A stretch of DNA of 64,000 nt from an uncultured Chromatiales bacterium (GCA_964602805.1 CAZRSJ010000004.1:1604-65603); one strand, 5' to 3'; positions 14,291-56,073 are shown, counted from the first letter of the stretch. A program made the numbers and translations. Notes: generated by a model not told the origin, from the letters alone.

Positions 14291-14354
14291 TGACGGCGCG
14301 GGCGCTGTGGTGCCCGGCGTTCGTCTTTATCCATCAACAGAAAAGGACTTTCTT

Positions 14355-15635: not shown

Positions 15636-15645
15636 GAGGTCCTGA

Positions 15646-16587: not shown

Positions 16588-16603
16588 AACGAGGACAAAC
16601 AAC

Positions 16604-17776: not shown

Positions 17777-17780
17777 CACG

Positions 17781-18668: not shown

Positions 18669-18677
18669 GGAGGCTGC

Positions 18678-19649: not shown

Positions 19650-19678
19650 GCACCCGCTCCGGGATCGGCCCCGCCTGC

Positions 19679-22381: not shown

Positions 22382-22421
22382 CGCCCACATCATTTAAAAT
22401 TCGCCGATCTTGGAAGGACCC

Positions 22422-37947: not shown

Positions 37948-39137
37948 CCGTGCCTCAAGGAGACATCTACATCGGGCTCGGCAGCAATCTGGACGGACCG
38001 ACCGAGCAAGTCCGCTCCGCAGTGCGCGAACTGGGGCAACTGGCCCAGGTTCGCCTGTGCGCCTCTTCGGGCCTGTACCGAAGTCCGCCAATGGGTGGGC
38101 TGGACCAGCCGGACTATATCAATGCGGTCGTGCAGGTCGAAACCGACCTGGAGCCCGAGCAGCTGCTTCACGAACTGCAAGTGATCGAGCGTCAACACGG
38201 GCGAAAGGAACAACGCGAGCGCTGGGCATCGCGGACATTGGACTTGGACCTGCTCTTGTGGGGGCAGGAATGTTTTGACAGCAAGGTCCTGACGTTGCCG
38301 CATCCGGGCCTACATGAGCGGGCGTTCGTACTGGCTCCGCTGCAGGAACTGGACGCGAATCTGGAGGTGCCCGGGCGGGGCACGGTGTCGAAGTTGCTGC
38401 GGGAGTGCCAGTATTCCCGGGTGGACCGGGTGGGGGCCTGCCAAAGCCTGCCCGACTCGGCACGCCTGATCGCGGTGGAAGGGCCAATAGGTGTCGGCAA
38501 GACCACGCTGTGCAACCGTCTCGCAGCTGATTTCAACGGCCGGTTGATGCTGGAGAACTACCAGGAAAACCCTTTCCTCAAAGATTTTTTCGAAGCCCCT
38601 GAAAAAACGGCTCTGGCAACCCAGTTGCATTTCCTGACCAGCCGGGCCTGCCAGTTACAGCAATTGAACCAAGTGGATCTGTTCCAGCAGCGCACCTTCT
38701 CGGATTACGTGTTCGAAAAAAGCGACTGGTTTTCCCGGCTATCGCTTCAGGGCGACGAATATGACCTGTGGCTCAGCCTGTTCACTCATATGTCCGCCGG
38801 GCTTCCACGTCCGGACTTGGTTATCTACCTGCAGGCACCGGTGTCGGTTTTGCTGGAGCGGATTGCGATGCGGGGGCGGTCATTCGAGCGCGCGGTGCGT
38901 CCGGAGTTCCTGGAGGCGCTGTCGGCATTGATGGCGGAACACTTTCGCCATTACTCCGGAACCGTACTGACGGTCGATACTTCTTGCGCCAATCTGGCGG
39001 AAAGCCTTCAGGACTACCAGAGCCTGCTGGTTGCACTGGATGGCATGACCCAACCCGGCCAGTATTTCCTGGACCCGAGCCAACCGGAGGGAATGCTGGG
39101 TGACATGATTCCAGCCGATTCGATGACGCAGGCATGA
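37944..39137 (+). CDS. folK: fusion protein: N-terminal HPPK domain (2-amino-4-hydroxy-6-hydroxymethyldihydropteridine pyrophosphokinase) plus C-terminal deoxynucleoside-kinase domain
   Basis: Residues about 8-165 match FolK (IGLGSNL, DQPDYINAVV, RWASRTLDLDLLLWG, PHPGLHERAFVL). Residues about 175-397 carry a dNK P-loop (IAVEGPIGVGKTTL), an ENPFL motif and the LID region. There is no stop between the two halves. GTG start overlapping the pcnB stop. Confidence 0.75.
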   Translation: MTVPQGDIYIGLGSNLDGPTEQVRSAVRELGQLAQVRLCASSGLYRSPPMGGLDQPDYINAVVQVETDLEPEQLLHELQVIERQHGRKEQRERWASRTLDLDLLLWGQECFDSKVLTLPHPGLHERAFVLAPLQELDANLEVPGRGTVSKLLRECQYSRVDRVGACQSLPDSARLIAVEGPIGVGKTTLCNRLAADFNGRLMLENYQENPFLKDFFEAPEKTALATQLHFLTSRACQLQQLNQVDLFQQRTFSDYVFEKSDWFSRLSLQGDEYDLWLSLFTHMSAGLPRPDLVIYLQAPVSVLLERIAMRGRSFERAVRPEFLEALSALMAEHFRHYSGTVLTVDTSCANLAESLQDYQSLLVALDGMTQPGQYFLDPSQPEGMLGDMIPADSMTQA

Positions 39138-39922
39138 GTACGCCGGATTCTCCCGTGACGCTTGATGCCCTGCGCCGGATGGTGCGGGAGGGCAAGAATC
39201 GTTTTGCCGGCCTGACGGCCTACGATGCGACATTCACGCGCGTGCTTGATGCATGTGGAGTGGAGTTCATCTTGGTCGGCGACTCTCTTGGCATGGTTAT
39301 TCAGGGGCATTCCAACACTCAGCCGGTGACCATGGACGACATGGTCTACCACACGCAATGCGTCGCCCGAAGCATTCAGCGCGCCCTGCTGATCAGCGAC
39401 CTGCCGTATATGAGTTGCTGCGATGTGCCAATGGCGCAAGCCAATGCCATGCGGCTGGTGCAGGAAGGTGGTGCGCAGGTGGTCAAGCTCGAGGCCTCCC
39501 AAGACCAGGTCGAAATCGTCCGCGCCCTGTCCGATCAGCGCATCCCGGTCTGTGCGCACCTGGGGCTTCGTCCGCAGAGCCTGGCCAAATTGACTGGAAT
39601 CCGGCGGCACGGGCGCACTGCCGAGGAAGCGGACGAACTTCGGGAGACGGCGCTTGCACTGGAAGAAGCGGGTGCGGACCTGCTGCTGCTGGAATGCGTG
39701 GTCGACGACCTGGCTGCGGAAATCACCGAGCAGGCAGGAATCCCGGTGATCGGCATCGGTTCCGGCGCGGCCTGCGACGGACAGATCCTGGTGCTGTACG
39801 ATCTGTTGGGGTTGACCGACCCGGCTCCGAAACACGCCCGCAGCTTCATGAACTCAGGCCGTGGTGTCGCGGATGCCGTCCGGGCCTACATTGAAGCGGT
39901 CCATTCCGGATCCTTCCCATGA
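39134..39922 (+). CDS. panB: 3-methyl-2-oxobutanoate hydroxymethyltransferase
   Basis: PanB motifs (LTAYDA, ILVGDSLGMV, KLE). Confidence 0.9.
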   Translation: MSTPDSPVTLDALRRMVREGKNRFAGLTAYDATFTRVLDACGVEFILVGDSLGMVIQGHSNTQPVTMDDMVYHTQCVARSIQRALLISDLPYMSCCDVPMAQANAMRLVQEGGAQVVKLEASQDQVEIVRALSDQRIPVCAHLGLRPQSLAKLTGIRRHGRTAEEADELRETALALEEAGADLLLLECVVDDLAAEITEQAGIPVIGIGSGAACDGQILVLYDLLGLTDPAPKHARSFMNSGRGVADAVRAYIEAVHSGSFP

Positions 39923-40764
39923 TCCTGTGCCGCACGGCGGCGCAACTTGAGGCCGCGCTGGCCCAGCAGCCCAGGGAGCGAGCCCTGGTGCCGACCATGG
40001 GCGGCCTGCACGCCGGGCACCTGAGTTTGATCGAACATGCACGGCAGTGTCCCGGAATCGTGTTGGCCACCGTTTTCGTCAACCGTCACCAGTTCGATGA
40101 CCCGGAGGATTTCTCCAACTATCCCCGCGAAGAGGAAGAAGACTTCGAACGCCTGCGCCAGGCGGGGGTCGATCTGACGTATGCCCCTGACGAACAGGCA
40201 GTCTGGGGCGGCGAGCTTCCCCGGCTGGAGGAATTCGAGATCCCGGGCTTGACGGATGTGCTGGAGGGTCGGTACCGCCCGGGGCACCTGACGGCGGTAG
40301 CGGCGGTAGTCAGCCGGCTGTTCGACCAGACAGCCCCGACGGTTGGCGTGTTCGGCGAGAAGGATTACCAGCAGTTGGTGCTGGTGCGGCGCTTGGCGGC
40401 GGAATGCCAGCCACCAATCCGAATTATTGCCGCTCCGGTCGTGCGCGAGCCGGACGGCCTGGCCATGAGTTCACGAAACCGAAGGCTGGGTCCCCAGTCG
40501 CGTGAACAGGCGATTGGATTGCACCGGATCCTGGAAGCGGCTGCAGAATCAATCAAGGGTGGGCTCGATGTCGAGCAGGCGCAACGGCAGGCGTTCGGGG
40601 CCTTGGTCGAGTCAGGATTTGAACCGGACTATGTCGAGGTGCGTGAAGCGGATTCCCTGCGCCGGCCAGTCCCAACCGACCGGGACCTCGTCATTCTGAC
40701 CGCGGCGCGGTTGTCGGGAGTGCGGTTGCTGGATGTCGTCCGTTTCGGCCTAGCCTTGTCGTGA
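39919..40764 (+). CDS. panC: pantoate--beta-alanine ligase
   Basis: PTMGGLHAGH HIGH-type motif and the PanC fold. Confidence 0.9.
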   Translation: MILCRTAAQLEAALAQQPRERALVPTMGGLHAGHLSLIEHARQCPGIVLATVFVNRHQFDDPEDFSNYPREEEEDFERLRQAGVDLTYAPDEQAVWGGELPRLEEFEIPGLTDVLEGRYRPGHLTAVAAVVSRLFDQTAPTVGVFGEKDYQQLVLVRRLAAECQPPIRIIAAPVVREPDGLAMSSRNRRLGPQSREQAIGLHRILEAAAESIKGGLDVEQAQRQAFGALVESGFEPDYVEVREADSLRRPVPTDRDLVILTAARLSGVRLLDVVRFGLALS

Positions 40765-40816: not shown

Positions 40817-41716
40817 CTATGCGAGGTCGTGCCGTTCGAGAAACTCGCGGGTCACGGCAACGCACTCCTCGGGTTTTTCCAGTTGAAGCAAATGCGTCGT
40901 TTCAGGGATGAAATCGTAGTCCACTTCATAGGCGAGCCGCTGGTCGAGCGTGGGCAGATACGAGTGCGGCATGGTGGGGTCGGCGCCGACGATCTTCTTC
41001 GGACAGGCGATAAGGTCGAGATCGAGCAGCGGAAAGAAACTCCGGCCGTATTCCATCAGATTCGCTTCGTATTCACGGGGGCAGCGAAGCTCGTAATCGT
41101 GACCGCCCGCGGATTCTCGAAGCGTCGTCAGCGCCATGAGTTCGTGCACGCCAGGGGCAACCCTCTTGAATGATGGAAGAAACTTCAGGAGTTCGACAAA
41201 CTCCTCCCGCGACTTAAAGTGATCTTCCCGCTGCCGGGTCTTGGCAGCTATGAGCGCGGCCGCCTCCAGAAGCTCCGTCTGACTCATGTCGTGCTTAGCC
41301 AGGGGCGGATCGAACAAAACCAGCGCCGAATAAATTTTGCTACAGGACAGAATGGAGACAATCGAGGTGAGGGAGTGAAAGATGCCGACCGTCGGCTTGC
41401 TGCCATACTCACGATCAATGGATTCGAGAATGATGTCGTGATCGCAAACAAGCGTCGGAATATTGTGATCCCTCGGGGCGCCGACGCTATTCCAACCGTG
41501 GTTCCTGAGGTCGTAGACCATCACGTCGTAGTCGTTCGCGAGCAGAGACCAGAACGGGTAATAGAGATCGGCGGCGAGACCACTGCCGTGGCTCAGGACG
41601 ATCCTGGTGCCTGACGGATTGCCGTGCTGGCGTACGGTGGTGACGGTATCGTCGTCGAGACGAACATCGAGGGTTGATAAGGGGTTGGGTATCTCCCACA
41701 CGATGTCAATTGTCAT
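40817..41716 (-). CDS. alpha/beta-fold hydrolase (candidate thioesterase/hydrolase of the PKS locus)
   Basis: HG-motif oxyanion region (IVLSHGSG) and a C-terminal His-x3-E-x-PE end (THLLQLEKPEE). The nucleophile elbow reads GIFHSLTS, which is non-canonical versus GxSxG. Lower GC than the surroundings. Co-transcribed downstream of the discrete ACP. Confidence 0.7.
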   Translation of the reverse strand: MTIDIVWEIPNPLSTLDVRLDDDTVTTVRQHGNPSGTRIVLSHGSGLAADLYYPFWSLLANDYDVMVYDLRNHGWNSVGAPRDHNIPTLVCDHDIILESIDREYGSKPTVGIFHSLTSIVSILSCSKIYSALVLFDPPLAKHDMSQTELLEAAALIAAKTRQREDHFKSREEFVELLKFLPSFKRVAPGVHELMALTTLRESAGGHDYELRCPREYEANLMEYGRSFFPLLDLDLIACPKKIVGADPTMPHSYLPTLDQRLAYEVDYDFIPETTHLLQLEKPEECVAVTREFLERHDLA

Positions 41717-41888
41717 GGCAAAAAGTCCAGATGTCTGCCAATACGCGCCCTGAATGGAACGCAGCGCCGCCGGAATGGCGGGGCACTCAATGCCGAAAAT
41801 GTCGACCGCCTCTGGGCTTGGGGCGGTCGGTTGCGTTCAACTGGTATCAGGGATCATCCGGCGAGTGCACGGATGCCACCTGGAATGC

Positions 41889-42119
41889 TTACTGACCGCG
41901 CGCGTCGATGTAGCTTACGAGTTCGCGGAGGTTATTGAACTGTGTGCATTCATCCGCGACCAATCCGAGGTCAAATTCCTGGTTGACCAGTTTGAAAAAC
42001 GCGATCGCATCCACCGAAGAAACCCCGATGTCACTGAACGACCGGTCGAAATCTGGGTCACGGCCTAGGTCGAGGTTTTCGGTGATGAGCGTTCTTAGAC
42101 GGTCTTCAGTTCCAGACAT
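41889..42119 (-). CDS. discrete acyl carrier protein
   Basis: 76-aa four-helix ACP-like protein with the phosphopantetheine-attachment motif DIGVSSVD. Transcribed divergently from the PKS start, 285 bp away, from an AT-rich intergenic region. Confidence 0.65.
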   Translation of the reverse strand: MSGTEDRLRTLITENLDLGRDPDFDRSFSDIGVSSVDAIAFFKLVNQEFDLGLVADECTQFNNLRELVSYIDARGQ

Positions 42120-42404
42120 GTTTATTTCTCCCTGAAAGTGAATGTTATTGTTATGTGTGCAGTCCGAAGTTCCTAGCCCAAATTAGACCTGGAGATAACC
42201 GGACAGACCGATGCCCCTATAAGGGCAGAGTGCCATACGATGAGCAGTTTGGACAGTGTAGCATTAATTTCAACGTGGTCAGCGACAGTCTCATTTGACT
42301 AGTTTTGTCTCTTGGCGAAGGGGGGCCAGGGTTCTTGTTTGCCGTTAGGCTCGACTTGGAATACGATGTTTTAAGCTAATTCCAGTTCATGTAACGAGCC
42401 CTCT

Positions 42405-45400
42405 ATGGCAAAGCCGGACAAATCTCCCACCCCCTCTGACCCTCAGGAGTCGAAGCGCGTCGCGGGCGATCCGCCCATAGCGGTCATAGGCATGGCCTGC
42501 CGGTTTCCCGGCGCGCCGGATATCCCGGCTTTCTGGCGCCTGCTCGAAAGCGGCGGGAACTCGATCAGCGAGGGAATCTCCGGCGCGGGCGCCGAACGCA
42601 TGGGGGAACTTTTCCCTGGCGGCGTGGTTCCGAACGAAGCCTGCCGCTTCGGATCCTTCGTTTCTGATATCGACCAGTTCGATGCCTCGTTCTTCCGGAT
42701 TTCACCGGCAGAAGCACAACTGATGGATCCACAGCAGCGCATGATGCTGGAGACGAGCTGGCTGGCGCTTGAAGATGCAGGGATCGATCCGGACCGACTC
42801 AAAGGCGGCCAGACTGGCGTCTACACCGGGATCAGCAATGACGAGTACCGAATGCTGGTTCTGGACACGACCAAGCCGACCGAGGCGGCCGGATGCCTCT
42901 ATGCCCTCAGCGGCACCAACCTGAACGGCGCCAGCGGGCGGGTGTCTTTCGTCTTGGGTCTCATGGGGCCGGCGAAGGCCGTGGATGCCGCTTGCGCGTC
43001 GTCCCTGGTCTCGGTCCACGATGCGGTGGTTGACCTGCAGCAGGGCAAGGCGGACCTGGCCATTGCCGGCGGCGTGCAGGCCCTCCTGAACGGCCGCGTC
43101 TACGAACTGCGTGCGGACGCAATGATGCTGTCTCCCGACGGGCAGTGCAAGACTTTTGATGCATCTGCGAACGGTTACGTACGCGGCGAGGGTTGCGGGG
43201 TCGTGATCCTGAAACGACTGAGCGAAGCGGAAGCGGATGGCGATCGTATCTGGGGCGTCATCCGAAGTTCGGCGGTGAATCACGGCGGAGCCAGCGTTGG
43301 ATTGACGGTCCCGAATACACCTGCGTTGGAACAGGTGATCGAGACGGCGCTATCGCGGGCGGGCATCCCCCCGTCGGAAGTGGATTACCTGGAGGCGCAC
43401 GGAACCGGAACGACGGTGGGCGATCCCATCGAAATCAATGCGGTAGCCTCTGTCTACGGGAAGGAACGCGAGGCCGATCACCCGCTTCTGGTCGGTTCCG
43501 TAAAAACCAACGTCGGCCACCTGGAGTCTGCCGCCGGGGTTGCCGGGCTAATCAAGGCAGTGTTGGCGGTGGAGCGGGGCGTAATTCCGAAACACCTGCA
43601 CTTCCAGGACCCCCACCCGGGCATCGACTGGGATCATCTGCCGTTGCAGATCACTTCGTCCACGACGGACTGGCCGCGCCATCGCGGGCGACCGCGGTTG
43701 GCGGGCGTGAACTCCTTCGGGATATCCGGGACGAACGCCCACATTGTGGTGGAAGAGTACGACGGTCCAAGCCCGGCTCTTGACGAAGGATATCGGGCTG
43801 CGGGTTCCGCAAAGGCCGTGGAGATCCCGCCGCCGGCGACCGTGGCGGATCTGTCGTTGCCGGAACAGGAAGGGAGCGGACGCAAGAGCCGTCTTTTGCC
43901 GTTGTCGGGCAAATCGGAGGGCGCGCTTCGGGAACTGGCAAAGCGGTACCTGTCGTGGCTCGACGACCGGGCCGAAGAATCCTCGGAAAGCATTGCCATG
44001 GAACCGTTGCTGTCGGACATGGCGTGGAGCGCCAGCGTGGGACGGAGCCATTTCGACTATCGTGCGGGGATCGTGTTCCGCGATGCCGAGTCGCTGCGGG
44101 AACGCCTGAAAGATTTGGCCGAAGCAGACGATGGCGTGAAACCCGGGAGGGCGGCCAAGGTGGCATTTGCCTACACCGGGCAGGGAAGCCAGTGGGCCGG
44201 CATGGGACAAGCACTCTACGAACACGAACCGATAGCGCGCGCGGTTCTGGATCGTTGCGAAGCGGCATTCCGGGATGCGCGGGGAACCTCCCTGCTGGAT
44301 GTGATGTTCGGCCGGGACGAGGGCGAAGGCGAACTTGAAGACACGGCGTGGGAACAACCGGCCCTCTACGCTTTGGAGTGCGCGCTGACGGCTCTATGGA
44401 CGAGTTTGGGCATCAGGCCCAGTGTGGTCGTGGGGCACAGCGTCGGGGAACTGGCGGCGGCACAGGCGGCAGGAGTGTTCAGTCTCGAGGACGGGATGCG
44501 GTTTGCCGCGACCCGGGGCGCCTTGCTGTCGGGAACCGAACCGGGTGCCATGGCCGCAGTGTTTGCACCGGCTGAGCAGGTGGCATCGGAGGTCGAGGCG
44601 TTCAATGCATCGTCATCCAACGCCAGGCTGAGTGTTTCGGGGTACAACGGGACCCATCAGGTGATCAGCGGCCCGATCGAGGAAATTGAAGCTATTTCGA
44701 AGCACCTCGAATCAGAAGGGATCCGGGTCAAGCGGCTGAACACGGCCCGGGCATTCCACAGCGCCCTGGTGGAGCCGGCCTTGGACACACTGGAAGCGTC
44801 CCTGGAGGGCATCACAATCAAGCCTCCCTCCCTGACCGTGGTCAGCAACCTGACGGGCCAGGCAGTCGGACCCGACGAGTTGCTGGACGGGACCTATTGG
44901 AGACGGCATGCCCGGGAGCCGGTGGCATTCGCTCGCGGTGCCGAAACACTGGCGGAACTCGAGGTGAATCTGGTACTGGAGATCGGCCCGCGCTCCGTAT
45001 TGGCCCCCATGGCAGCTGCGGCCTGGCCCGAATCCGCACAGGCTCCCGCAGTCCTGTCGAGCCTGTACCCGCCATCCGGGAACGGCAAGGCATCCGGAAG
45101 CGGCAGCGATTTTGCAGAGGCAGTCTCGGAAGCCTATCAGGCAGGGCTGCCGATTCATTTCCCGGGGCTTTTCACGGGCGAAACGCGGCGGCGAATTTCG
45201 TTGCCGGGCTATCCATTCCAGCGCGAACGCCACTGGGTTGAGGCCTCGAAGCGACGGCACTTGGCCGAGGGTCACCCCCTGCTGGGCGTTCGGCATGAAT
45301 CCGCCAACGGCGAGATCACGTTCGAGACCGAGATCTTCCCCTCGGATCCGACATGGCTGAGCGATCATCGGGTGTTCGGCCGGCTCATCGCACCGGGCGC

Positions 45401-48400
45401 ACTTTATGGCGCCATGGCGGCATCGGCTTCTCTTGCCGAAGGCGGCCGGTCGATGGTGGTGGAAGATCTGCAGTTGCATAATCCGTTGATCTTTTCGGAC
45501 GAGGGGGCCGGGGAAGGAGAGGAAGAGAATGGCCGAAAAGTTCAGGTTGTGCTCGATGCCCCCGAACAGGCGCCATCGCAGCGTGTCCGGATATTCAGCA
45601 AGGGAAGCGAGGAAGGCTGGGTTCAGCACATCGAGGGCCGCGTGTCGCCGGGCACCTCCATGCCGGAAGACAGTGCGCGGATCGATGTCGAAAAACTGAA
45701 GTCCGACCTGTCGCCGGCTGACGTGTCGGCCTATTACCACGCCAAGGCGGCGACCGGGATCGACCTCGGCCCATTCTTCCGCACGCTAGGGAAGGTGTGG
45801 TCCGGGCCAGGTGAAGCGTTGGGAGAAGTGTCTTTGCCGGAATCTCTGGGCCGCAACGAATTGGATGTCCACCCGCTTGTACTGGACGGTTGCTTCCAGG
45901 TCGTGGGCGTGGCACGAAACATGACGGGCGCCCAGGGGGAGGCGACGTACCTGCCGTTCGGCTGGGAGCGGCTGTGGCTGGCGAAGCGACTGCCGGACCG
46001 GGTGCTTTGCCACGTGCGCATCAATGAGGCTCCCGGGCAATCGGAAGAGAAACCGGGCCAGGCGCCGGAGGTTCTGAGCGGGGAATTGCGCATCTACGAT
46101 CCGGATGGGGTTTTGCTTGGCGCCTTGAGCGGGTACACGGTGAAACGGGCGACGCGGGCGGCGCTGTTGTCGGCGGTCGAGGGAGTGAAAGATCTGCTGT
46201 ATGAGGTTGTCTGGCGCGATTGTGCCCTCGCACAGGGAATCACTTCCGCCGACTTCTTCCCGGATCCGTCTTCTGTCGCAGCTTGCACGGGGTTGTTCTC
46301 CGAGTATGTGGCAGCCGAGGGGGTCAAGCCGGAGGACAGGAATTCCCTGCTGATGGATCTGGAGCGATGGTCGCGATCCTATGCGCTCACGAACCTGGAG
46401 AAGCTGGGCTGGCAGCGCGAGGCAGGCATGACCGTGGACCCCGACGATCTGCGGCAACGCTTGGGAGTCATCGAGGATCACAAGCGCCTGTTCCGCCGGC
46501 TGTTTGAAATGCTCGCCAAGTCGGGAGTGCTGGAAGAGACGGAGGAGGGTTTCACCGTCGTGGTGGGGCCGGAAGACCCGCTGCCGGACGAACTGCCGGA
46601 CAACCCAGAGGAATTCCACACCCGGATGGCCGAACTCTATCCTCATGGCTCGACCGAGATCGGGTTGTTCCGCCGGTCCGGCGGCGCCCTGGTCGAAGTG
46701 CTGCGCGGTCAAGAGGACCCGTTGACGCTCCTGTTCAGCAGCGGAGAACCGACTGCGGCGGATCTGTACCTGAAGGCGCCGGTCGCCCGTGCCGCGAACC
46801 GGTTGCTGGCCGACGCGGTTCGAACGCTGGTGGCCGCATTGCCCGAGGGGCGGCGCCTCAGGGTCGTTGAAGTCGGTGCAGGCACGGGGTCGGCGACGGC
46901 GTCCGTCCTCCCGGAGCTTCCACAAGGACGATTCGACTACACGTACACGGACATTTCGGCGGGCTTCTTTGCGGAAGCGGAGGCGCGCTTCGGGGATGCT
47001 GGCGGCTGCATCGAATACCGGCCGCTGGATATTGAAAAGGACCCCATCGCCCAGGGCTTCAACTCCCACGGCTATGACTTGATGATTGCATCCAATGTGC
47101 TTCACGCGACGCGCCATCTTGATGAAACATTGGGGCACTGCCGGGATCTTCTTGCTCCATCGGGGCAGTTGATCGCGCTTGAGAACCTCCACGGCCAGGG
47201 CTGGATGGATCTGACTTTCGGACAGTTGGACGGCTGGTGGCGGTTTGCCGACGACTACCGTCCCCACCACGCCCTCGCGAGCCCCGCGGTGTGGCGTCAG
47301 GCACTTGGCAATTCGGGTTTCGGGGAAGTGGAAGTTCTTGGAGTGGACGAGTCCGACGCGGCCAAGATGCCGGACAAGGGCGTGATCGTCGCACGGGGTC
47401 CCGTGGAAGTGGCGGAGCCCCCGGGCGTATGGGTGCTGACAGCGTCTCACGGAGACGGGGCCGCAGAACTCGCGGGCTTGTTGGCGGCAAGGAACCAGAC
47501 GGTCGTATTGGCGGGAAGCGAATCGTCCGAGGACGGGCAATTGGCAGCAGGTGGTCCCGGCGTTTTCAAGGCTGCCGTGGAAATGGATCAACGGGAATCG
47601 TGGCAGTCCCTGCTGGAAAGCCTGCCCGGGGAGGTACCGTTCAACGGCGTGGTGCATCTTGCGGCGCTGGACGGCCATGGGACAGAGGCGGCGACCGAGG
47701 AAATGGCGGAAGACGTCAAACAAATCGGCGCGAGCGCATTGGCGCTGGTGCAAGGCCTGACCGATGCCGACGTCACACCCGAGAAGGGCGTGTGGTTTGT
47801 TACGCGCGGGGCGCAAGTGCTGGAGCGGGAGCGCGGCGGGGCACTTGCAGGTGCGACACTCTGGGGCTTTGGCAAGGTGGTGGCCCAGGAAGCGGCGCAT
47901 CTGCAACCGAGGATGATCGATCTGGATCCCGCGGAAACAGCTTTCTCGGCTGACTTTCTCAACGAATTGCTCTACCCGGACCCGGAAAACCACATCGCTT
48001 ACCGTTCGGGCGACCGCCTGGTTGCGCGCTTGGTTCGATTCGGCACCGAGGCGGAGCGGCTGGTCCTGCCGGAAGAATCGGACTGGGTACTGTCTCCGGA
48101 TCCGGGCGGGATATTCGAGAAACCGGAAATCAAGCTGCTCCCGGAGCGCACCCTGGAGCCGAAGGAAGTCCGCGTTACGGTCGAGGCCACGGGGCTCAAC
48201 TTCTGGGATGTGTTCCGCTCGCTCGGTTTCATCGAGGAAGGGAACCTGGGGCGGGAGCTGTGCGGCCATGTTCTCGAGGTGGGCTCCGACGTTTCTACCG
48301 TCTCGGCCGGAGACCGCGTGGTTGGATTGGGATTCGGGGCATTCGGGCCGGAAATGATCACCCGGGAAGAACTGGTAGCGCCAGCCCCGTCGGGCGTTTC

Positions 48401-51400
48401 AGTGTCGGGACTTGCCACGATTCCGAGCGCATTCGTGTCGGCGGCGCTGTCGTATGAACTGTCGGGCCTGGAAGCTGGAGACCGCGTTCTGATTCATGCG
48501 GGTGCGGGCGGCGTGGGGCTCGCGGCCATCCAGCTTGCAAACGCCGCGGGCGCGGAAGTTTTCGCCACCGCGAGCGCGCCAAAGCAAGCCTATCTCCGGT
48601 CACTGGGCGTGGAACACGTGTTCGACAGCCGCCAGACGGCATTCGGGAAGGAGATCCTTGAAGCTACGGATGGCGCGGGAGTGGACGTAGTACTGAATTG
48701 CCTGACGAGCGAGGGATTCATTGATGCAAGCCTGTCCTGCCTGGCGAAGGGAGGGCGTTTCGTGGAGCTGGCCCGGCGCGACATTCTGAGCAAGGACGAG
48801 ATGGCGGCGGTGCGCCCGGACGTGGCCTATGACATCCTGGAACTGGACGTTCTGAAAAAAACAGACCCGGCGTGGGTCGGAAGGGTCCTGGATGGCGTCA
48901 TGGAGCAGTTTTCAACGGGGAAACTGGCGCCGATCGTCCACAGCCGGTGGCCGCTGGCCGAAGCGGGAGCCGCATTGAGGTTCATGCGCTCGGCACGGCA
49001 CCTCGGAAAGATCGTCCTGACGCCGCCGGCGCTCATGAGGGGCCAGTTGCGGCAGGACCGGACCTATCTGGTGACTGGCGGATTGGGTGGAATCGGGTGT
49101 GCCGTGGCCGAATGGCTCGCGGGCCAGGGGGCGGGAGCCATCGTGCTGAACGGGCGCCGGGACCCGGATGCTGCGGCCGAGGAGACGATCAGCGCACTCA
49201 GGGAACGCGGGATAACGGTGCAGGTGGAGCTGGCGGATGTGCTGGACGTCGCTGCGGTGGACCAGATGTTGGCGCGGATTGATCAGGAGCTGCCGCCCCT
49301 CGGCGGCGTGATCCACAGCGTGGGGGTGCTGTCGGACGCCGCGTTGACCAACCAGAGTTGGGAAAGTTTCGAGACGGTGCTGTGGCCAAAGATCCTGGGG
49401 GCCTGGCATCTGCACCGCGCGACAATGAATCGCGACCTGGATCTTTTCGTCCTCTTCTCGAGCCGGGTCGGCGTGATGGGCAATCCCGGCCAGGCGAATC
49501 ACGCTGCGGCCAATGCCTTTCTGGACCAGCTCGCTGGCCATCGCCGTGCGTTAGGTCTCCCGGGACAGGCCATCGCCTGGGGGGCATGGTCGGAAATCGG
49601 CGAAGCGGCAGAGCAACGGGAACGGATCGAGCGGCGGCGCGCAGCGCTTGGCGGCCGCTGGTTTACTCCGCAACAGGGAATCAAGGCACTTGAGAATCTG
49701 GTGCGCCAAGACACCACGACTTCCGTGGTGATGGCGATGGACTGGGCCGTGTTCGAGGAAGCCACTGGAACCCGTCCGCCCCTGCTGGAGGACCTGCTGT
49801 CCGTTGCGTCGGACCTCGAGACCGAGGCCTCGGCTCCGTCGGGCGACCTGCTTTCCCAGTTGCGTGGGGCGCCTGCGGCAGCACACGAGGGGCTTCTCGT
49901 CTCTTTCCTGCAGCAAGAGGTGCAAGCGGTGCTGAGGCTGCCGACGGCACCGGCACCCACGGTAGGGTTTTTCGATCTGGGGATGGACTCGCTGATGGCA
50001 GTGGAGTTGCGGAACCGCCTGAACCGCGCATTTTCAGAAGAATACACGGCATCCAACACGGTCGTGTTCGACTATCCCGACATAACTACGCTCGCGGGTC
50101 ATTTGGCCGAGGAGGTTGGCGATATCGGCGGCGCGCCTGCTCCTCAGGCCCAACCCGAGCCCGAGCCCGAGCGCCAGCCGATCGAACAACGCGAGGATGA
50201 CGACATCGCAATCGTGGGTATGGCGTGCCGCTTTCCGGGCGCTCCGGATCTCTCGTCATTCTGGCGTGTGCTTGAAGCTGGTGAGGACACGGTGACCGAC
50301 GGGCGCCAGGATTCCGACTTCTGGGGCGATCTTGGGGAAGACTTTCGCACCAAATACGCCGCTTACCGCCGGGGCGGGTTCGTGGAAGGGCTTGACAAAT
50401 TCGATGCACGCTTCTTCGGCATCCGGCCGATCGAGGCGCGGACCATGGACCCCCGGCAAAGGCTGTTGCTGGAAACGAGCTGGCAGGCGCTTGAGGATGC
50501 CGGAATGGACCCCGACCTGCTGAAAGGCAGCCAAACCGGGGTGTACGTGGGGTTGGGCGGCAGCGAATATCGGGATCTGGTCGCAGCCCTCGGTGAGGAT
50601 GACAACTACATCGGTACGGCCGGCAGCGTAGCGGCCGGGCGGATTTCCTATGCACTGGGCTTCATGGGGCCGGCAATCCCGCTTGACATGACCTGTGCCT
50701 CGTCATTGGTTGCGGTGCATCAGGCAGTCGCAAGCCTGCAGCGGGGCGAGGTGGATTTGGCTCTGGCCGGAGGCGCCAACGTGGTCCTGTCTCCTTCAGT
50801 CACAAAGTTCATGGCGGACTTCGGGATGCTGTCGGCGAGCGGGCGGTGCGGGGTTTTCGATGCTGCGGCAGATGGTTTCGTGCGAGGCGAGGGTTGCGGG
50901 ATCGTGGTTCTCAAGCGGTTAAGCAAAGCGGAAGCGGACGGCGACCGAATCTGGGGTGTGATCCGGGGTTCAGCGGTTAACCAGAACGGGGCGAGTGCCG
51001 GCATATCGGCACCAAGCGGAACCGCACAGGAGCAGGTACTCGGAGAGGCGCTGGCCCAGACCGGGATTCCGCCGTCGGAGGTGGATTACCTGGAGGCCCA
51101 TGGAACAGGCTCGGAAATGGGAGACCCGATCGAGGTGAGCGCGGCGGCGGCAGTGTACGGCAAAGGGCGCGAGGCGGATCGCCCGCTGCTGATCGGTTCG
51201 GTCAAGCCGAACATCGGACACTTGGAGTGGGCGGCAGGAGTTTCGGCGTTGATTAAAGTCGTGCTGGCGATGCAGCAAGGAAAGATCCCGAAACAACTAC
51301 ACCTCCAGAATCCGAGCCCGCAGGTGGACTGGGACCAGTTGCCCGTGCGGGTGGCGTCGGAAACGATCGACTGGCCGCTAGACCCCGACCGGCCGCCGCG

Positions 51401-52733
51401 GGCGGGTGTGAGCGCTTTCGGGTTGTCGGGGACGAACGCCCATGTCATTGTGGAAGGCTACGACACGTCGCAAGGCGGGTCATCCAAGTCCGACGGGATG
51501 TCCGCCCCCAGGGGGACCGAACAGACTGTCGACATCTCGCTGCCGGAATCCGTCGCAGATTCGCTGCCGGCAACAGGGGAATTCGACCCGCGTGCGGCAA
51601 GAATCCTTCCCCTCTCCGGGAAATCGCATGCAGCACTTGGAGAGTTGGCAGGGGAATACCGGTCATGGCTTGATGATCACGCAGAGGAACTTTCCGAAGA
51701 AGGCGAAACTCCAGACCGATTGCTTGCCGATATGGCATGGACGGCCGGGATGGGGCGAAGTCATTTCACTCACCGCGCAGGCGTGGTGTTCAGCGACGCC
51801 GGATCCCTGAGGGACGGGCTGGAGGCGCTGGTAGAAGCGGGCGAGAAATCGGAGCCGCGAGTGGCGGCGAAGGCCGCGTTCGTGTACACCGGGCAGGACA
51901 GCCAGTGGGTCGGGATGGGAGAAGCGCTGTATCGGAGCGAGCCGGTAATACGGGCGGTGCTGGATCAATGCGATGCCTGGCTTCAGGAAGAACGGGAAGT
52001 TTCGTTGCTGGATGTGGTGTTTGGTCGGGCCGATTCGAAAGAAAGCCTGGACGATCCGGCATGGGCGCAACCGGCTATCTATGCATTGGAATGCGCGCTC
52101 ACGGCATGGTGGCGGAGCACGGGGCTTCGCCCGAGCGCGGTGATTGGCCATGATCTCGGGGAAGTCGCGGCGGCGCAGGCAGCGGGAGTCTTGGGCCTGA
52201 AAGATGGCTTGCGGTTTGCGGCAGCGCGCGGTGCGTTGGTTGAGGCCCCGGATGAATTGGAAACGGCTTTCTCGGATATCGCGATCGCACCGCCATCGAT
52301 TACCCTGGTCAGCGGCACAATGGGCCGGACGGTCGGACCCGACGAAATACTCGATGCAACGTACTGGCGCGAGCAGGCGTGCAAGCCGGCGGAACTCCAG
52401 AAATGCGCCGGGGTGCTGTCGGATTTCGGAATCGATGGGCTGGTGGAGATCGGCCCGCGCGAGGCATTTGGCCCCATGCTCGCTTCCGCCTGGCCGGAGT
52501 CGGCGGGAGATGCCGGGGAGCCCGCGCTGATCCCAAGCCTGTACGAGCCGTCCGGTGACGAGCCGGTGGAGGACATTTACCGGAAATTCTTGGGAGCCGT
52601 GGCAAAGGTGTACGAGGCGGGACTGCCGATTTCCTTCCAAGGCTTGTTCGCGGGAGAAGCACGGCGCCGAATCTCACTGCCGGGCTATCCGTTCCAGCGC
52701 CGCCATCACTGGTTCAAGGCACTGGAGCAATAG
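42405..52733 (+). CDS. type I polyketide synthase, KS-AT-DH-cMT-ER-KR-ACP-KS-AT* (terminal AT degenerate)
   Basis: 3442-aa ORF. Domains called from signature motifs, detailed in the sub-features. KS1 (DAACASS, HGTGT, NVGH). AT1 (GQGSQ, GHSVGE, RAFHS). DH (HPLLG...[15 protein letters not shown]). cMT ([22 protein letters not shown]). ER ([15 protein letters not shown]). KR ([10 protein letters not shown]; [15 protein letters not shown]). ACP (LGMDSLMA). KS2 (DMTCASS, HGTGS, NIGH). AT2 remnant (GQDSQ, GHDLGE). Confidence 0.9.
42470..43760 (+). other. PKS domain: ketosynthase 1
   Basis: Active-site Cys codon at 42993 (DAACASS). HGTGT and KTNVGHLE motifs present. Confidence 0.8.
44150..45170 (+). 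other. PKS domain: acyltransferase 1 (malonyl-type motifs)
   Basis: GHSVGE with the Ser codon at 44439. RAFHS (the HAFH-type motif usually associated with malonyl-CoA). Confidence 0.75.
45250..46100 (+). other. PKS domain: dehydratase
   Basis: HPLLGVRH (HxxxGxxxxP region) and [17 protein letters not shown] (DxxxQ/H region). Confidence 0.65.
46700..47250 (+). other. PKS domain: C-methyltransferase (class I SAM MTase)
   Basis: Motif [10 protein letters not shown], motif [15 protein letters not shown], motif [15 protein letters not shown]. Confidence 0.7.
48100..49030 (+). other. PKS domain: enoylreductase (MDR family)
   Basis: NADPH-binding [17 protein letters not shown]. Confidence 0.7.
49050..49620 (+). 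other. PKS domain: ketoreductase (catalytic Tyr position occupied by His)
   Basis: Rossmann motif [11 protein letters not shown]. The catalytic-region reads [22 protein letters not shown] where KRs normally have QxNYAAAN. The His codon is CAC at 49500. Confidence 0.65.
49900..50100 (+). other. PKS domain: acyl carrier protein
   Basis: [16 protein letters not shown]. Ser codon at 49989. Confidence 0.75.
50190..51470 (+). other. PKS domain: ketosynthase 2
   Basis: DMTCASS (Cys codon at 50673). HGTGSEMGD and KPNIGHLE present. Confidence 0.8.
51860..52733 (+). other. PKS domain: truncated, probably inactive acyltransferase-like remnant (AT*)
   Basis: GQDSQ instead of GQGSQ. GHDLGE instead of GHSxG, with the Asp codon GAT at 52152. 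The segment that carries the xAFHS specificity motif in AT1 is missing. The ORF ends with a post-AT linker homologous to the one after AT1 ([14 protein letters not shown]). Confidence 0.65.
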
Positions 52734-52798
52734 GCTGCCCTTGCGTTGTCCCGCAGGGGCGTTTTGCCGCGAAAAGCCCATTTGCTAAAATTCGGATC

Positions 52799-53179
52799 AT
52801 GAAACTGACTTTCCTCCGTGCCCGCCTGCATCAGGCAACGGTAACCCATGTCGAGCCGGACTACGATGGTTCGTGCGCGATTGATGGCGAGTTGCTGGAA
52901 GCGGCCGGCATCAGCGAGTACGAGCAGATCGACCTGTACAACATTACCAATGGGGAACGGCTGACGACCTATGCCATCCAGGCCCGCCACGGCAGCCGAA
53001 TCATTTCGGTGAATGGCGCGGCGGCGCACAAGGCGTCGCCGGGGGATCAGGTCATCATTGCCGCCTACGCGCAACTGGAACCGGAGGAAGTGGCGGACTT
53101 CAAGCCCGTTCTGGTGTATCTGGGCGAAGGCAACCGCATCGAGCGCATCACCCACAAGATTCCGGTCCAGGCGGCCTGA
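52799..53179 (+). CDS. panD: aspartate 1-decarboxylase (pyruvoyl-dependent)
   Basis: 126 aa with the [19 protein letters not shown]-type N-terminus and the GSCAID self-processing site. Confidence 0.9.
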
Positions 53180-53180: not shown

Positions 53181-56006
53181 TCAACCAGTATTTCGCATTC
53201 CCGCCGCGATCGCGCTGATCGATCGCGCCACGGCATCCTGGTAAGGATCGGGGTCGGAGGCTTCGCGCATACGGCGCAGTAGGCTGAGCTGGATCGCGTT
53301 GAGGGGATCCAGGTAGGGTTTCCGGCGGCTCAATGACCGGCGCAAGACTTCCTGCGTTTCCAGAAGTTCTTTGGATTTTGTCACCCGCAGAACAAGCTTG
53401 CGAGTAAGCTGGTATTCTTTCTTGATTCGCTTGTAAATCCGTTCGGCGTCGTCTGGATTCTGGCTCAGTTGCATGTACTGCTGCGCGGTCGGCATGTCGG
53501 CCTTGACGAGCGCCATCTGGATGTTCTGCATCAGGGTCTGGAAGAAAGGCCAACGCTCGTACATGAGGCGAATTTGCTTAAGTCCGGTGCGCGGATGCGC
53601 CTCCAAGTAGGACTCGAGCGCGGTGCCGATGCCGTACCAGGCGGGCAGGGTATGCCGCGAGAGGGACCAGCCGAACACCCAGGGGATGGCGCGGATGGAA
53701 TCCATCGAGCGGTCCACCGCGCGGCGGTGCGAAGGCCGCGAGCCGATGTTGATGTTGCCGATCTCCTGCACCGGGGTGACCTCGTAGAAGTAGTCTAGGA
53801 ATCCCGGAACCCCGATCAGTTCCCGATAAGCCCGTTCGCCGTCTTCGGCAAGCTTTTCCATGATCCTGAGATCATCGGCGTATTCATGGGCCAGTTTGTG
53901 GAACAGCAGGTGGCGGGAGGCTACGATCAGCCCGGTCACGCCCATGGTCAGTTCGTACACGGCGGTCTCCAGGTTGGAGTACTTGTGCGACAGCACTTCG
54001 CCCTGCTCGGTCAGCTTGATGGCGCCACGCACCGTGCCGGGCGGCTGCGCCGTAATGGCCTCGTAGGCCGGCCCCCCGCCTCGCCCGACGGTCCCGCCGC
54101 GGCCATGGAAAAGCCGGAACTGCACTCCACGGCGCCTGGAGACCTCGTGAATCTGCTTTTGCGCCTGGTACAGGTTCCACGCGGAAGCCAAGATGCCGCC
54201 ATCCTTGCAGGAGTCGGAATAGCCCAGCATGATGTCCTGCACGCCGCCTGATGCATTGAGCAACGGGCGGTAGACAGGATCCTGGAACAGTCGATTCAGG
54301 ATACTTGGCGCCCTGCGCAGGTCCTCGATCGTCTCGAACAACGGGCAGACCTGCAACAGGCAGAAGTGGTTTTTCCCGTGGCCTCCGGCCAGGCCGGCCA
54401 GCCCTCCCAGGAACAACACCTCCAGAACATGGCTGGCCTCGTGGGTCATGGAAATGACGTACTGGCCGAAGATTTTCGGGCTGGTTCGTTTCGGCACTTC
54501 CCGCACGAGGTCGAACACGGCCAGGGTTTCGCGCGTGGCGGCGGACAGTTCCCTGCGGTCCAAGGAGGCCGGTCCGTCCATCTCCTTGAGATGCTTTCGC
54601 AGGGCTTGGACGCGCCCGGCTTCGGTCAGGTTGGCGTAGTCGGTCCCATCCATGGCCTGCATGATTTCGCCGACCGCCTCCGTGTGGCGCGGAGATTCCT
54701 GGCGGAGATCGAGTCGCGCAAGGTAGAAGCCGAATGTCTCTACCAACCGGATCAGGTCGGTCAATTCTCCGTCCGCGATGCGGCCGTCACCCTGCTCGAC
54801 CAGCGAGTCGTAGATCAATCGCAGGTCGTCTAGGAACTGGCTCTCGTCCTGGTAGCTGTCCGAACTGTGCCAGGATCGGCCCGCTAGGTGATCGAGCCGA
54901 TGCTGCAGCCGGTACAGGATGACTTCCAGCTTGCAGCGGTACGGTTCGGTCTCGAACAGTGAAATGCTTCGGTTGCGCACCCGGTCCAGCAGCTTGCGGT
55001 CAGCCTCCAGGCTGGTGCGCATGCGGTCGGGCAGGTCGATCAGGTGGGAGGAATGGCTGAGGATGCTTTCCAGTTTGCGAACGCGCCGGATGTATTCGAC
55101 GAGGATGGTGCGCGCCTGCATCCGGCAGGCTTCCCGGGTCACGCGTGCGGTGACGTGGGGGTTGCCGTCGCGGTCGCCACCGATCCAGGAGCCGAACTGG
55201 ATGATGCTCGGGAGCGTGCGGGGCGAATCCGGGTAGGTCCGGCGCCAGGTGCGCTGCAGGTTGCGGTACAGGATCGGAATCGCCTCGAACAGGGATTTTT
55301 CGAAATAATGCAGGCCGTTCTTGACTTCGGTCTGCACGGTCGGCTTGCCCGGACGAACCTCGTCGGTCTTCCACAGCAACTGGATTTCCGCCAACAAGCG
55401 CTCTCTAGCTTCGTCGCGCTCCATCTGGCTCAAGGCCGGGTCGTCCGAGGATTGCAGCAGGATAAAGATCCGCCGCAAGGCTTCTTGCATGATGCGGCGC
55501 TTCGCCTCGGTCGGATGGGCGGTGAAGACCGGCATGTAATTCGTCTGAAGCAACAGTTTTTCGGCTTTGGCGGCGCTGAAGCCCTGTTTCTTGAGTGTGC
55601 GCAGGGTCGCATCGAACGAGCCCGTCCACAGTGCCGTGCCGGCGCGCAGGTATCGGTGGCGCCGATCCTGGAGCGCCGTCTCTTCGGCGACGTTGACCAG
55701 GCTGAAGTAGGTGGAGAATGCCCGGATGACCTGGCTGGTGAGGTCTTGATCCAGTTGGTCGATCAGGCGGATCAGGCGGACGCGCCGTTTCGTGTCCTCT
55801 TCGCGTTGCAGGCGGATGTAGCCCCGGCGTAGACGCTCCACGATCTGGAACACTTGGGGTGGGGCGTGCTCTTGGAGCACGAGGCCGAGCAGGCGACCCA
55901 GCAGTTTGACCCGCTGTCGTAACTTGCGGTCAGTGGCATCGCCTATCGACGGCTTGTGTGTGGCCGCGCTAGGCATAGGAGTGACAAGTGGAGGCGATGT
56001 GCCCAT
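53181..56006 (-). CDS. ppc: phosphoenolpyruvate carboxylase (second, canonical-type copy)
   Basis: PEPC motifs VFTAHPTEAKRR, FGSWIGGDRDGNPHVT, FHGRGGTVGRGGGPA, and the canonical C-terminus AIAAGMRNTG. The longest ORF has a GTG at 56114, but that reading overlaps the AbiEii gene. Start is uncertain; internal ATGs lie at 56006 and 55976. Confidence 0.85.
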   Translation of the reverse strand: MGTSPPLVTPMPSAATHKPSIGDATDRKLRQRVKLLGRLLGLVLQEHAPPQVFQIVERLRRGYIRLQREEDTKRRVRLIRLIDQLDQDLTSQVIRAFSTYFSLVNVAEETALQDRRHRYLRAGTALWTGSFDATLRTLKKQGFSAAKAEKLLLQTNYMPVFTAHPTEAKRRIMQEALRRIFILLQSSDDPALSQMERDEARERLLAEIQLLWKTDEVRPGKPTVQTEVKNGLHYFEKSLFEAIPILYRNLQRTWRRTYPDSPRTLPSIIQFGSWIGGDRDGNPHVTARVTREACRMQARTILVEYIRRVRKLESILSHSSHLIDLPDRMRTSLEADRKLLDRVRNRSISLFETEPYRCKLEVILYRLQHRLDHLAGRSWHSSDSYQDESQFLDDLRLIYDSLVEQGDGRIADGELTDLIRLVETFGFYLARLDLRQESPRHTEAVGEIMQAMDGTDYANLTEAGRVQALRKHLKEMDGPASLDRRELSAATRETLAVFDLVREVPKRTSPKIFGQYVISMTHEASHVLEVLFLGGLAGLAGGHGKNHFCLLQVCPLFETIEDLRRAPSILNRLFQDPVYRPLLNASGGVQDIMLGYSDSCKDGGILASAWNLYQAQKQIHEVSRRRGVQFRLFHGRGGTVGRGGGPAYEAITAQPPGTVRGAIKLTEQGEVLSHKYSNLETAVYELTMGVTGLIVASRHLLFHKLAHEYADDLRIMEKLAEDGERAYRELIGVPGFLDYFYEVTPVQEIGNINIGSRPSHRRAVDRSMDSIRAIPWVFGWSLSRHTLPAWYGIGTALESYLEAHPRTGLKQIRLMYERWPFFQTLMQNIQMALVKADMPTAQQYMQLSQNPDDAERIYKRIKKEYQLTRKLVLRVTKSKELLETQEVLRRSLSRRKPYLDPLNAIQLSLLRRMREASDPDPYQDAVARSISAIAAGMRNTG

Positions 56007-56073
56007 TATACCGGGCTGGTCCGAGCCCCGATCGTGCCGAAACAGCCCCGGATTCAAGGGGCCAGCAGAGGGT

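Follow-up and report, generated by a model that had tools for sequence, protein, structure and literature searches.

What is a polyketide locus doing between panC and panD, and how long has it been there? The question is raised by a window of 64,000 nucleotides from an uncultured Chromatiales bacterium (GCA_964602805.1 CAZRSJ010000004.1:1604-65603; the window means this whole stretch, and positions are counted from its first letter), in which a 12,034-bp segment carrying a type I polyketide synthase (PKS) gene, a free acyl carrier protein (ACP) gene and an alpha/beta-hydrolase gene separates panD from panB and panC (Table 1). Our analysis indicates that the segment is very probably a compact three-gene member of the Sup (sponge symbiont ubiquitous PKS) family, that it lies in a small-genome gammaproteobacterium at a panC/panD junction prone to gain and loss, and that within its subclade it has descended vertically, kept by purifying selection. 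An earlier description made from the DNA alone (hereafter the sequence-only reading) had reported co-oriented panB, panC and panD split by a minus-strand hydrolase-ACP pair and a plus-strand PKS, with an AT-rich divergent region of 285 bp. Coordinates and Pfam matches agree with this order, the divergent region has the length and low GC content described, and every gene named was recovered where it had been placed (list of open reading frames, ORFs, and Pfam scan).

We assign the locus to the Sup family because of the domain order and motifs of the synthase, its homologs in metagenome-assembled genomes (MAGs) from sponges, a conserved gene set in three other clusters (loci L081-L083), and the full-length homology of the hydrolase and the ACP. 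By Pfam the PKS reads KS-AT-DH-cMT-ER-KR-ACP-KS-AT° (ketosynthase, acyltransferase, dehydratase, C-methyltransferase, enoylreductase, ketoreductase and ACP, with AT° for a degenerate AT), which is reportedly also the order of the published SupA (Fieseler 2007). The same layout, closing with a KS and a truncated AT, is present in L081-L083, L085 and L088-L090. In the KS domains the motifs read DPQQR or DPRQR and HGTGT or HGTGS. The set conserved in L081-L083 consists of a PKS of the same layout, an ACP of 79-81 aa, an Sfp-type phosphopantetheinyl transferase (PPTase), an Abhydrolase_6 protein of 280-301 aa and a divergent Xan_ur permease, and the PKS of the window is 61-76% identical to the PKSs within such PKS-ACP-PPTase-hydrolase-permease clusters. 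Of the marks of a Sup cluster, the synthase layout, an adjoining free ACP and an adjoining Abhydrolase_6 hydrolase are found in the window, and an adjoining Sfp-type PPTase and SupE-type permease are not.

A protein database search with the KS2-AT° region returned homologs 53-66% identical, the named ones from MAGs of Gemmatimonadota, Latescibacteria, Nitrospira SB0672_bin, Caldilineaceae SB0666_bin, Bryobacterales, Rhodospirillales, Nitrospinae, Chloroflexi and Gammaproteobacteria, taxa which we take to be the typical community of high-microbial-abundance sponges. The longest match had 1486 aa, the 3442-aa PKS of the close relative L088 (96% identical) was not returned, and an exact-sequence look-up of the full PKS gave no match; very long proteins are seemingly missing from this database, so that the match lists are biased towards split or partial PKS genes. 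The impression that most sup genes are split or broken was accordingly rejected as a sampling bias. Contigs LXNI, LXNJ and MKWU, from the metagenomes of the sponges Sarcotragus foetidus, Petrosia ficiformis and Aplysina aerophoba, encode a PanD 96-98% identical to that of the window and have sup genes or their remnants at the same junction; close relatives of the bacterium of the window would thus seem to live in marine sponges.

It is documented that sup genes dominate KS amplicons from sponges and that SupE is a permease (PMC3908369). Sup enzymes were described as "unusual, small monomodular polyketide synthases", ubiquitous in high-microbial-abundance sponges and proposed to make mid-chain-branched fatty acids (PMC4245539), and MAGs of Chloroflexota, Spirochaetota, Proteobacteria and Acidobacteriota have been shown to contain SUP gene cluster families, irrespective of taxonomy. 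The locus belongs to this known and very common sponge-symbiont cluster family, whose presence in Proteobacteria MAGs is already published (PMC9426513), and its three-gene subtype, position and variants leave the classification of the system unchanged. With the Sup cluster it shares one fully reducing, C-methylating module followed by KS-AT°, a free ACP with an Abhydrolase_6 hydrolase, and relatives in sponge metagenomes. It differs in having three genes with no adjoining PPTase or permease, in an ACP-hydrolase pair that is divergent and upstream of the PKS rather than downstream, and in its host, a gammaproteobacterium with a genome of ~1.4-2 Mb in which the cluster sits inside the pantothenate operon.

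The ACP-hydrolase pair forms a distinct subtype, 72-75% identical to that of L090 versus 36-59% to the canonical type. The ACP is 91% identical to that of L088, 88% to L089, 72% to L090 and 36-46% to those of L081-L083, and its attachment serine lies within GVSSVD (residues 32-37); the corresponding full-length identities of the hydrolase are 96%, 89%, 75% and 57-59%. The hydrolase belongs to a distinct family of small size (153 representatives out of 1.84 billion at E<=1e-30), with a tight group 87-96% identical and, below it, many 299-aa proteins 65-77% identical from many lineages including Rhodospirillales, Acidobacteria and Albidovulum. Across 63 homologs reaching down to 29% identity, residues D69, R71, D92, S115, E217 and H275 never vary and H43-G44, H114 and D246 hardly do, which fits a candidate triad Ser115-His275-Asp246 with an atypical elbow, F-H-S-L-T instead of G-x-S-x-G. 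An AF2 model built from 33 similar sequences reached pLDDT 59 and was discarded; the 63-sequence alignment gave pLDDT 92.5 and an alpha/beta hydrolase with a lid. Foldseek matches in the PDB (esterases, PME-1, the curacin CurM thioesterase; 13-19% identity) are all generic, with no specific function readable from them, and NCBIfam offered no equivalog. The most economical reading is that the hydrolase is probably a thioesterase or another acyl-transferring or acyl-releasing enzyme.

Two features of the synthase require closer attention, the terminal AT and the KR. The KS2-AT2 half is 57% identical to KS1-AT1. In AT2, GHDLGE replaces GHSxGE, GQDSQW replaces GQGSQW, and ~75 residues are deleted, taking the small subdomain and the xAFH histidine, and AT2 is by these motifs dead and AT1 the one live acyltransferase. 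The AT1 motifs GHSVGE and RAFHS are presumably of the malonyl type, in which case methyl branches would come from the S-adenosylmethionine (SAM)-dependent cMT domain. Among database homologs the terminal AT is likewise shortened, by roughly 70-95 residues; in those whose motif could be scored, GHS is kept once and otherwise replaced by GQG, GHG, GHN or GQE. The terminal AT of L085 keeps GHS yet has the same small-subdomain deletion; this GHS stretch (PKS aa 3220, locus ~20,690) resembles the AT1 of the same protein, and it is possible that it arose by gene conversion from AT1.

In the KR, a His (aa 2366, nt 49500-49502) stands where the catalytic Tyr is expected, as GQANHAAAN aligns with GQxxYAAAN of mycocerosic acid synthase (MAS) and AmphB KR2. 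The His recurs in 39/39 database homologs spanning the motif and in 7/7 PKS loci (L081-L083, L085, L088-L090), and the catalytic Lys, Ser and Asn positions appear to be kept when read against the MAS and AmphB KR2 alignments. To our knowledge, all characterised PKS and fatty acid synthase (FAS) ketoreductases carry the catalytic Tyr. The DH, ER and cMT motifs are kept across the PKS loci examined, and all catalytic motifs of the synthase are present except those of AT2 and the KR Tyr. Because they are common to the homologs examined, the oddities of AT2 and the KR are best described as a maintained design, not as decay. The sequence-only reading had seen a fully reducing, C-methylating module followed by a second condensation; the Sup family and the dead AT2 had escaped it.

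From the domain content, the live and the dead AT, the ACP-less KS2 beside a conserved free ACP, the serine hydrolase and the purifying selection, all of which are observed, we infer the following course of synthesis. As the synthase has no loading domain, KS1 would receive a fatty acyl primer in trans, and AT1 would load malonyl onto the integrated ACP and probably onto the free ACP too. The first module would carry out one condensation, a SAM-dependent C-methylation and full reduction, giving a 2-methyl-branched acyl-ACP. KS2, which lacks a cis ACP and whose partner AT is dead, would then join this chain to the malonyl carried by the free ACP. There the branched chain may be elongated again by the cell's type II FAS, or the hydrolase may release it. 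The reductive steps are uncertain mainly on account of the His-for-Tyr KR. The outcome would be mid-chain methyl-branched fatty acids, as proposed for Sup enzymes, and the methyl-branched reduced acyl chain guessed by the sequence-only reading agrees with this published hypothesis (PMC4245539).

Other known systems resemble the locus in part. MAS and related mycobacterial iterative PKSs such as Pks2 share with it a FAS-like KS-AT-DH-ER-KR-ACP module and convert fatty acyl primers into methyl-branched acids; MAS is also the best solved-structure match of the KR (E=1e-46), and the Pks2 and Pks13 models are among the top NCBIfam matches, all under their cut-offs. Nonetheless, MAS takes its branches from methylmalonyl-CoA and has a normal KR Tyr, with no terminal KS-AT°, free ACP or hydrolase partner, and a MAS-like iterative PKS was set aside in view of the cMT domain and the malonyl-type AT1 motifs of the window. 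The Swf system (sponge widespread fatty acid synthase, SwfA-C) is another mono-modular, FAS-like type I PKS that is widespread in sponge symbionts; SwfA reads KS-AT-DH-ER-KR-ACP, without cMT or terminal KS-AT°, its KS motifs are DPQ[I/V]R and HATGT, and its partners are a reductase-sulfotransferase (SwfB, R+ST) and a radical SAM enzyme (SwfC) (PMC3908369). It was discarded on account of the cMT domain, the unaltered KS motifs and the lack of adjoining SwfB or SwfC in the window. The hydrolase, whose model is a lidded alpha/beta-hydrolase fold, also resembles the thioesterase (TE) of CurM and other offloading thioesterases of this fold (the CurM TE, 3QIT, ranks among the top Foldseek matches, E~2e-14, TM 0.66-0.70), but no more than 14-16% of residues are identical, the scores of generic esterases and PME-1 are as good or better, and the hydrolase of the window is free-standing, with its F-H-S-L-T elbow and no sulfotransferase partner.

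These likenesses bear on the first alternative, that the PKS is a two-module cis-AT enzyme making a short bioactive polyketide which the hydrolase releases, and not a lipid system. Two KS domains in series, a free ACP and a trans-acting hydrolase with CurM among its fold matches would suit such an enzyme, and an inactive KR could give a beta-keto or alpha-methyl product rather than a fatty acid. A multimodular cis-AT assembly line has an active AT and an ACP in each module and a terminal TE, and the PKS lacks this combination: the Pfam scan of the protein shows neither a loading module nor a TE domain, KS2 is not followed by an ACP, and there is no second live AT. The reductive loop is FAS/MAS-like, with MAS the best solved match of the KR, retention of the cluster in genomes of 1.4-2.0 Mb and across many phyla is a better fit to a membrane-lipid role, and the literature favours methyl-branched fatty acids (PMC4245539). 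We regard the assembly-line alternative as unlikely, and a Sup synthase acting on fatty acyl chains as the preferred explanation.

How the Sup genes came to lie at this site can be read from relatives of the bacterium. A PanC search of genome contigs gave ~30 gammaproteobacterial loci in which pcnB, folK, panB, panC and panD are contiguous, four of them (Thiohalomonas, Thioalkalivibrio, Chromatiaceae and Thiohalomonadaceae) with the convergent ppc as well, and 0/80 loci from this search held a match to the PKS, hydrolase or ACP; the closest relative reached was 48% identical in PanC, which makes the search informative for the ancestral order only. Close relatives came from a PanC protein search, in which a graded clade extends from ~90% down to 55% identity before a plateau at ~48%. 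In L087 (PanC 66%) panC overlaps panD, ppc follows and there is no insertion. As these ~30 contiguous loci and L087 lack it, the segment is, by gene order, an insertion relative to the ancestral gammaproteobacterial arrangement.

Within the clade the content of the junction varies. The exact arrangement of the window is found in L088 (circular, 1.82 Mb; PanC 91%), whose PKS is of the same length, and in L089 (1.73 Mb; PanC 88%, PKS 95%). In L085 (PanC 84%) the gene of a 3421-aa PKS begins 170 bp downstream of panC and neither hydrolase nor ACP intervenes; this PKS is only 67% identical to that of the window, no closer than the PKSs of unrelated lineages, though pcnB, folK and panB are 85-92% identical. 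Unrelated cargo is present in L171 (circular, 2.02 Mb; PanC 72%), with an autotransporter and hipBA between panC and panD (L171 11223-16544), and in L086 (circular, 1.85 Mb; PanC 77%), where a type II secretion system (T2SS)- or pilus-like cluster (10933-20834; GspG, GspE, GspF, PilN and secretin) follows panC and panD is not within 10 kb. The sponge metagenomes add reduced forms: only a 230-bp 3' remnant of the hydrolase gene (9758-9988) between panC and panD in L091 from Sarcotragus (PanC 83%, PanD 98%); hydrolase and ACP directly upstream of panD, with no PKS between, in L092 from Aplysina (PanD 96%); and 3' remnants of both the hydrolase and the PKS (456-981; PKS aa 3366-3438, 81% identical) in L093 from Petrosia (PanD 96%), which is by these remnants an internal deletion of the arrangement in the window. 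The panC/panD junction in this clade is, as far as these contigs tell, a recurrent site of gain, replacement and loss. The claim of the sequence-only reading that the locus is an insertion stands against the ancestral panC-panD-ppc order; a recent or genome-specific event does not, as L088 and L089 have the same arrangement.

The borders of the segment are tight, with 52 bp between panC and the hydrolase stop codon and 65 bp between the PKS stop and the start of panD. In the latter spacer, the scan for promoters and terminators found a promoter-like site (Table 1), without a Shine-Dalgarno sequence, and no terminator-like site. The motif TTTGCTAAAAT occurs once in the window, and it lies directly upstream of panD in the window and in four relatives (L091 9984-9994, L092 1137-1147, L093 1036-1046 and L171 16744-16754), whether the upstream neighbour is the PKS, a remnant, an ACP gene or hipB; a TTG-type -35 stands at 16 nt in 4/5 of these loci. 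The motif is missing from L087, in which panC and panD overlap and GGAGG precedes the ATG. Since the consensus match is conserved whatever the upstream cargo, panD, cut off from panBC, probably has its own putative promoter just upstream, from which it would be transcribed, possibly as a near-leaderless mRNA. The sequence-only reading had suggested that PKS expression is potentially coupled to panD by read-through, which is possible in view of the lack of a terminator-like site and probably not required in view of the conserved element.

The position itself could be functional, in that a PKS beside panD would couple expression of the synthase to the supply of beta-alanine, pantothenate, CoA and phosphopantetheine. 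PKS and panD are co-oriented across a 65-bp spacer without a terminator-like site, and ACP domains need CoA-derived phosphopantetheine. On the other hand, L086 and L171 have unrelated cargo at the junction, some relatives have lost the PKS, the promoter-like element is kept regardless of cargo, and the Sup clusters of other phyla (L081-L083, L090) are not beside pan genes. We consider a selected coupling improbable and favour a Sup cluster at a gain/loss-prone site.

With regard to age, the PKS compared with those of L088 and L089 gives a ratio of nonsynonymous to synonymous substitution rates (dN/dS) of 0.09-0.10 at dS 0.19-0.27 (Nei-Gojobori, 3110 codons), and dS of the flanking housekeeping genes is 0.20-0.38; by the same method dN/dS is 0.10-0.20 for the hydrolase and 0.15-0.21 for the ACP. 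Because dN/dS of the PKS is ~0.1 and its dS is like that of the flanks, the cluster is, on these estimates, old within the subclade, inherited vertically there and under purifying selection. The sequence-only reading had correctly noted that the PKS has a genome-like GC content and the hydrolase-ACP pair a lower one (63.9% versus 56.8% and 52.4%), and had proposed a mosaic of different ages. GC content lends this no support, because the ACP and hydrolase lie 6-15 GC points below their PKS in 4/4 other lineages (L081, L082, L083 and L090). The GC deficit of the hydrolase is mostly in codon positions 1 and 2 (GC3 0.707 versus 0.736 for the PKS), and at 62.6% GC the segment as a whole is close to the remainder of the window (61.5%), with no compositional anomaly. 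It had also been said in advance that relatives with the same arrangement and no GC anomaly would tell against the insertion, and this is very nearly what L088, L089 and the GC of the segment present.

These data also bear on whether the segment is a recently acquired horizontal island peculiar to this genome. The ancestral gene order lacks the segment, the sup cluster of the unrelated lineage L090 is flanked by transposase genes, and the incongruent region-to-region identities among Sup PKS genes (see below) suggest exchange between lineages. Against this, L088 and L089 share the arrangement with a PKS dS equal to that of the flanking housekeeping genes, their near-clonality with the window is ruled out by dS of 0.2-0.4, the segment has the GC content of its surroundings, and the deletion remnants in L091 and L093 imply that the locus is old within the clade. 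Neither direct repeats nor integrase, tRNA or mobile-element genes were seen at the borders, and Rfam and tRNA scans gave no match inside or beside the segment. A recent island is by this evidence largely refuted and retains very little probability; an old, vertically inherited Sup cluster explains the data better.

Throughout the wider Sup family the three genes may not be a unit with one history. L090 is 72% identical to the window in the ACP and 75% in the hydrolase and only 64% in the PKS, and L081 is 69-76% identical in the PKS and only 38% in the ACP and 57% in the hydrolase; because these identities disagree, partly separate histories of the PKS gene and the ACP-hydrolase pair are suggested. 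Within the PKS, L081 and L083 are 71% identical in MT-ER (aa 1420-2020) and 85% in KR-KS2 (aa 2215-3000), and for L083 and L090 the two values are 78% and 72%, which suggests recombination within the family. In L090 the order is ACP, hydrolase and a convergent PKS, with no PPTase or permease, between DDE and rve transposase genes (5327-7573 and 18736-20900). The L090 PKS lacks the N-terminal KS-AT and has 2306 aa. Transposase flanks and a shortened PKS in one locus may hint at how sup clusters move or decay.

That the locus is a decaying relic with a synthase that no longer works is equally remote, for although AT2 is degenerate, the KR lacks its canonical Tyr, neither PPTase nor permease is in the window, the cluster is deleted in L091 and L093, and frameshifts occur in 15% of supA amplicons (PMC4245539), the ORF of 3442 aa is intact and matched in length by L088, dN/dS is ~0.1 over 3110 codons, the other catalytic motifs are all present, and the peculiarities of AT2 and KR are kept across the homologs examined, as in a maintained design.

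Several points weigh against the Sup interpretation as we have put it. No PPTase homolog was found in the 64-kb window (tblastn with three L081-L083 PPTases, E<=1e-3), nor a homolog of a SupE-type permease (tblastn with the L081 and L082 permeases); a PPTase next to the cluster is also missing in L088, L089 and L090, and one may be encoded elsewhere in the genome. The domain order is equated with that of the published SupA partly by way of the homolog loci, and the Sup product is a hypothesis in the cited literature. The KR has His in place of the catalytic Tyr, and an inactive KR would sink the full reduction on which the proposed course depends. The promoter of panD is a prediction from a consensus match and its conservation. 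A more speculative proposal, which we find conceivable but doubtful, has two parts: that the Sup family may use a non-canonical ketoreductase chemistry, or not reduce at all, and that the panC/panD junction is a cargo-swapping site with a re-promoted panD. If it were true and the Sup KR did not reduce, the product would differ from the plain methyl-branched fatty acid that has been supposed since 2007.

Surveys of PKS genes in sponge microbiomes are dominated by Sup clusters, and in the cited literature their product and role are hypothesised only. A minimal three-gene version held under strong purifying selection in genomes of ~1.4-2.0 Mb, two circular contigs of 1.82 and 1.85 Mb among them, implies that the product matters to the symbiont. 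As a compact construct the set would lend itself to heterologous expression, and naturally occurring deletions and replacements could be compared with it. It seems that a conserved panBCD operon can be split by an insertion and its last gene re-promoted. The novelties are modest: the three-gene subtype, a hot spot splitting panBCD in small-genome symbionts, a natural series of replacements and deletions, and the promoter-like element of panD.

Table 1. Features of the Sup-like locus and its flanks; positions refer to the window
Feature	Position	Strand	Evidence and remarks
pcnB	36643-37947		Upstream of folK fusion; ORF list and Pfam
folK-deoxynucleoside-kinase fusion	37944-39137		Upstream of panB; ORF list and Pfam
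panB	39134-39922	+	Pfam Pantoate_transf, E=2e-92
panC	39919-40764	+	Left border of insertion site; Pfam Pantoate_ligase, E=9e-79
SupD-like alpha/beta hydrolase, 299 aa	40817-41716	-	Pfam Abhydrolase_6
SupB-like free ACP, 76 aa	41889-42119	-	Pfam PP-binding, E=2e-8
Divergent intergenic region, 285 bp	42120-42404	none	46% GC; presumed promoters of ACP-hydrolase pair and PKS
SupA-like type I PKS, 3442 aa	42405-52733	+	Single uninterrupted ORF; ORF list and Pfam
KS1	42474-43754	+	Cys-His-His present, NVGHLE
AT1	44166-45104	+	Acyl_transf_1, aa 588-872; GHSVGE at aa 677, RAFHS at aa 782
DH	45273-46166	+	PKS_DH_N and PS-DH; HxxxGxxxxP and LDGCFQ
C-methyltransferase	46791-47321	+	Methyltransf_12 and Methyltransf_23, aa 1463-1639; VEVGAGTG
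ER	48159-49019	+	ADH_N and ADH_zinc_N; HAGAGGVG
KR	49062-49595	+	Pfam KR, E=6e-61; His at catalytic-Tyr position
Integrated ACP1	49905-50105	+	PP-binding, aa 2501-2567; GMDSL
KS2	50199-51464	+	Internal paralog of KS1; Cys-His-His present, NIGHLE
Degenerate AT2 (AT°) and post-AT linker	51858-52718	+	GHDLGE, GQDSQW, deletion
PKS-panD spacer, 65 bp	52734-52798	+	Contains promoter-like element
Promoter-like element	52764-52791	+	TTGCCG, 16 nt, extended -10 TGCTAAAAT; ends ~8 nt before panD ATG
panD	52799-53179	+	Right border of insertion site; Pfam Asp_decarbox, E=2e-43
ppc (PEP carboxylase)	53181-56114		Downstream of panD, convergent with it

With regard to the remaining non-coding parts of the locus, the promoter scan called no strong sigma-70 consensus in the 285-bp divergent region, both ends of which are kept in L088 and L089 around a variable centre. 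No terminator-like sites flanking the PKS or panD were found by the scan, and a hairpin between panC and the hydrolase is no better than shuffled sequence (z=-1.4).

The neighbourhood holds some further features. In the folK fusion upstream of panB, HPPK is joined to a deoxynucleoside/thymidylate kinase-like domain, and the fusion is kept clade-wide (L084-L089 and L171). An AbiEii-type toxin gene lies directly after ppc (56074-57099, minus strand), where L087 has a Glyco_transf_22 gene, and a protein with Schlafen/AlbA_2 and HATPase_c_4 domains is encoded farther downstream (62103-63845, minus strand); it is possible that these are defence or toxin-antitoxin islets beside the same conserved block. 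At 10406-23282 the window contains a gene set resembling a C1/serine-cycle module, with a DAO-family oxidoreductase, an FTR-type formyltransferase, folD, a class-V aminotransferase, an HpcH/HpaI (malyl-CoA-lyase-like) aldolase, two CoA-ligase subunits (malate-thiokinase-like), a 2-hydroxyacid dehydrogenase and an Mpt_N methylene-H4MPT dehydrogenase. This set includes a second PEP carboxylase (19679-22381), so that the window holds two ppc genes.

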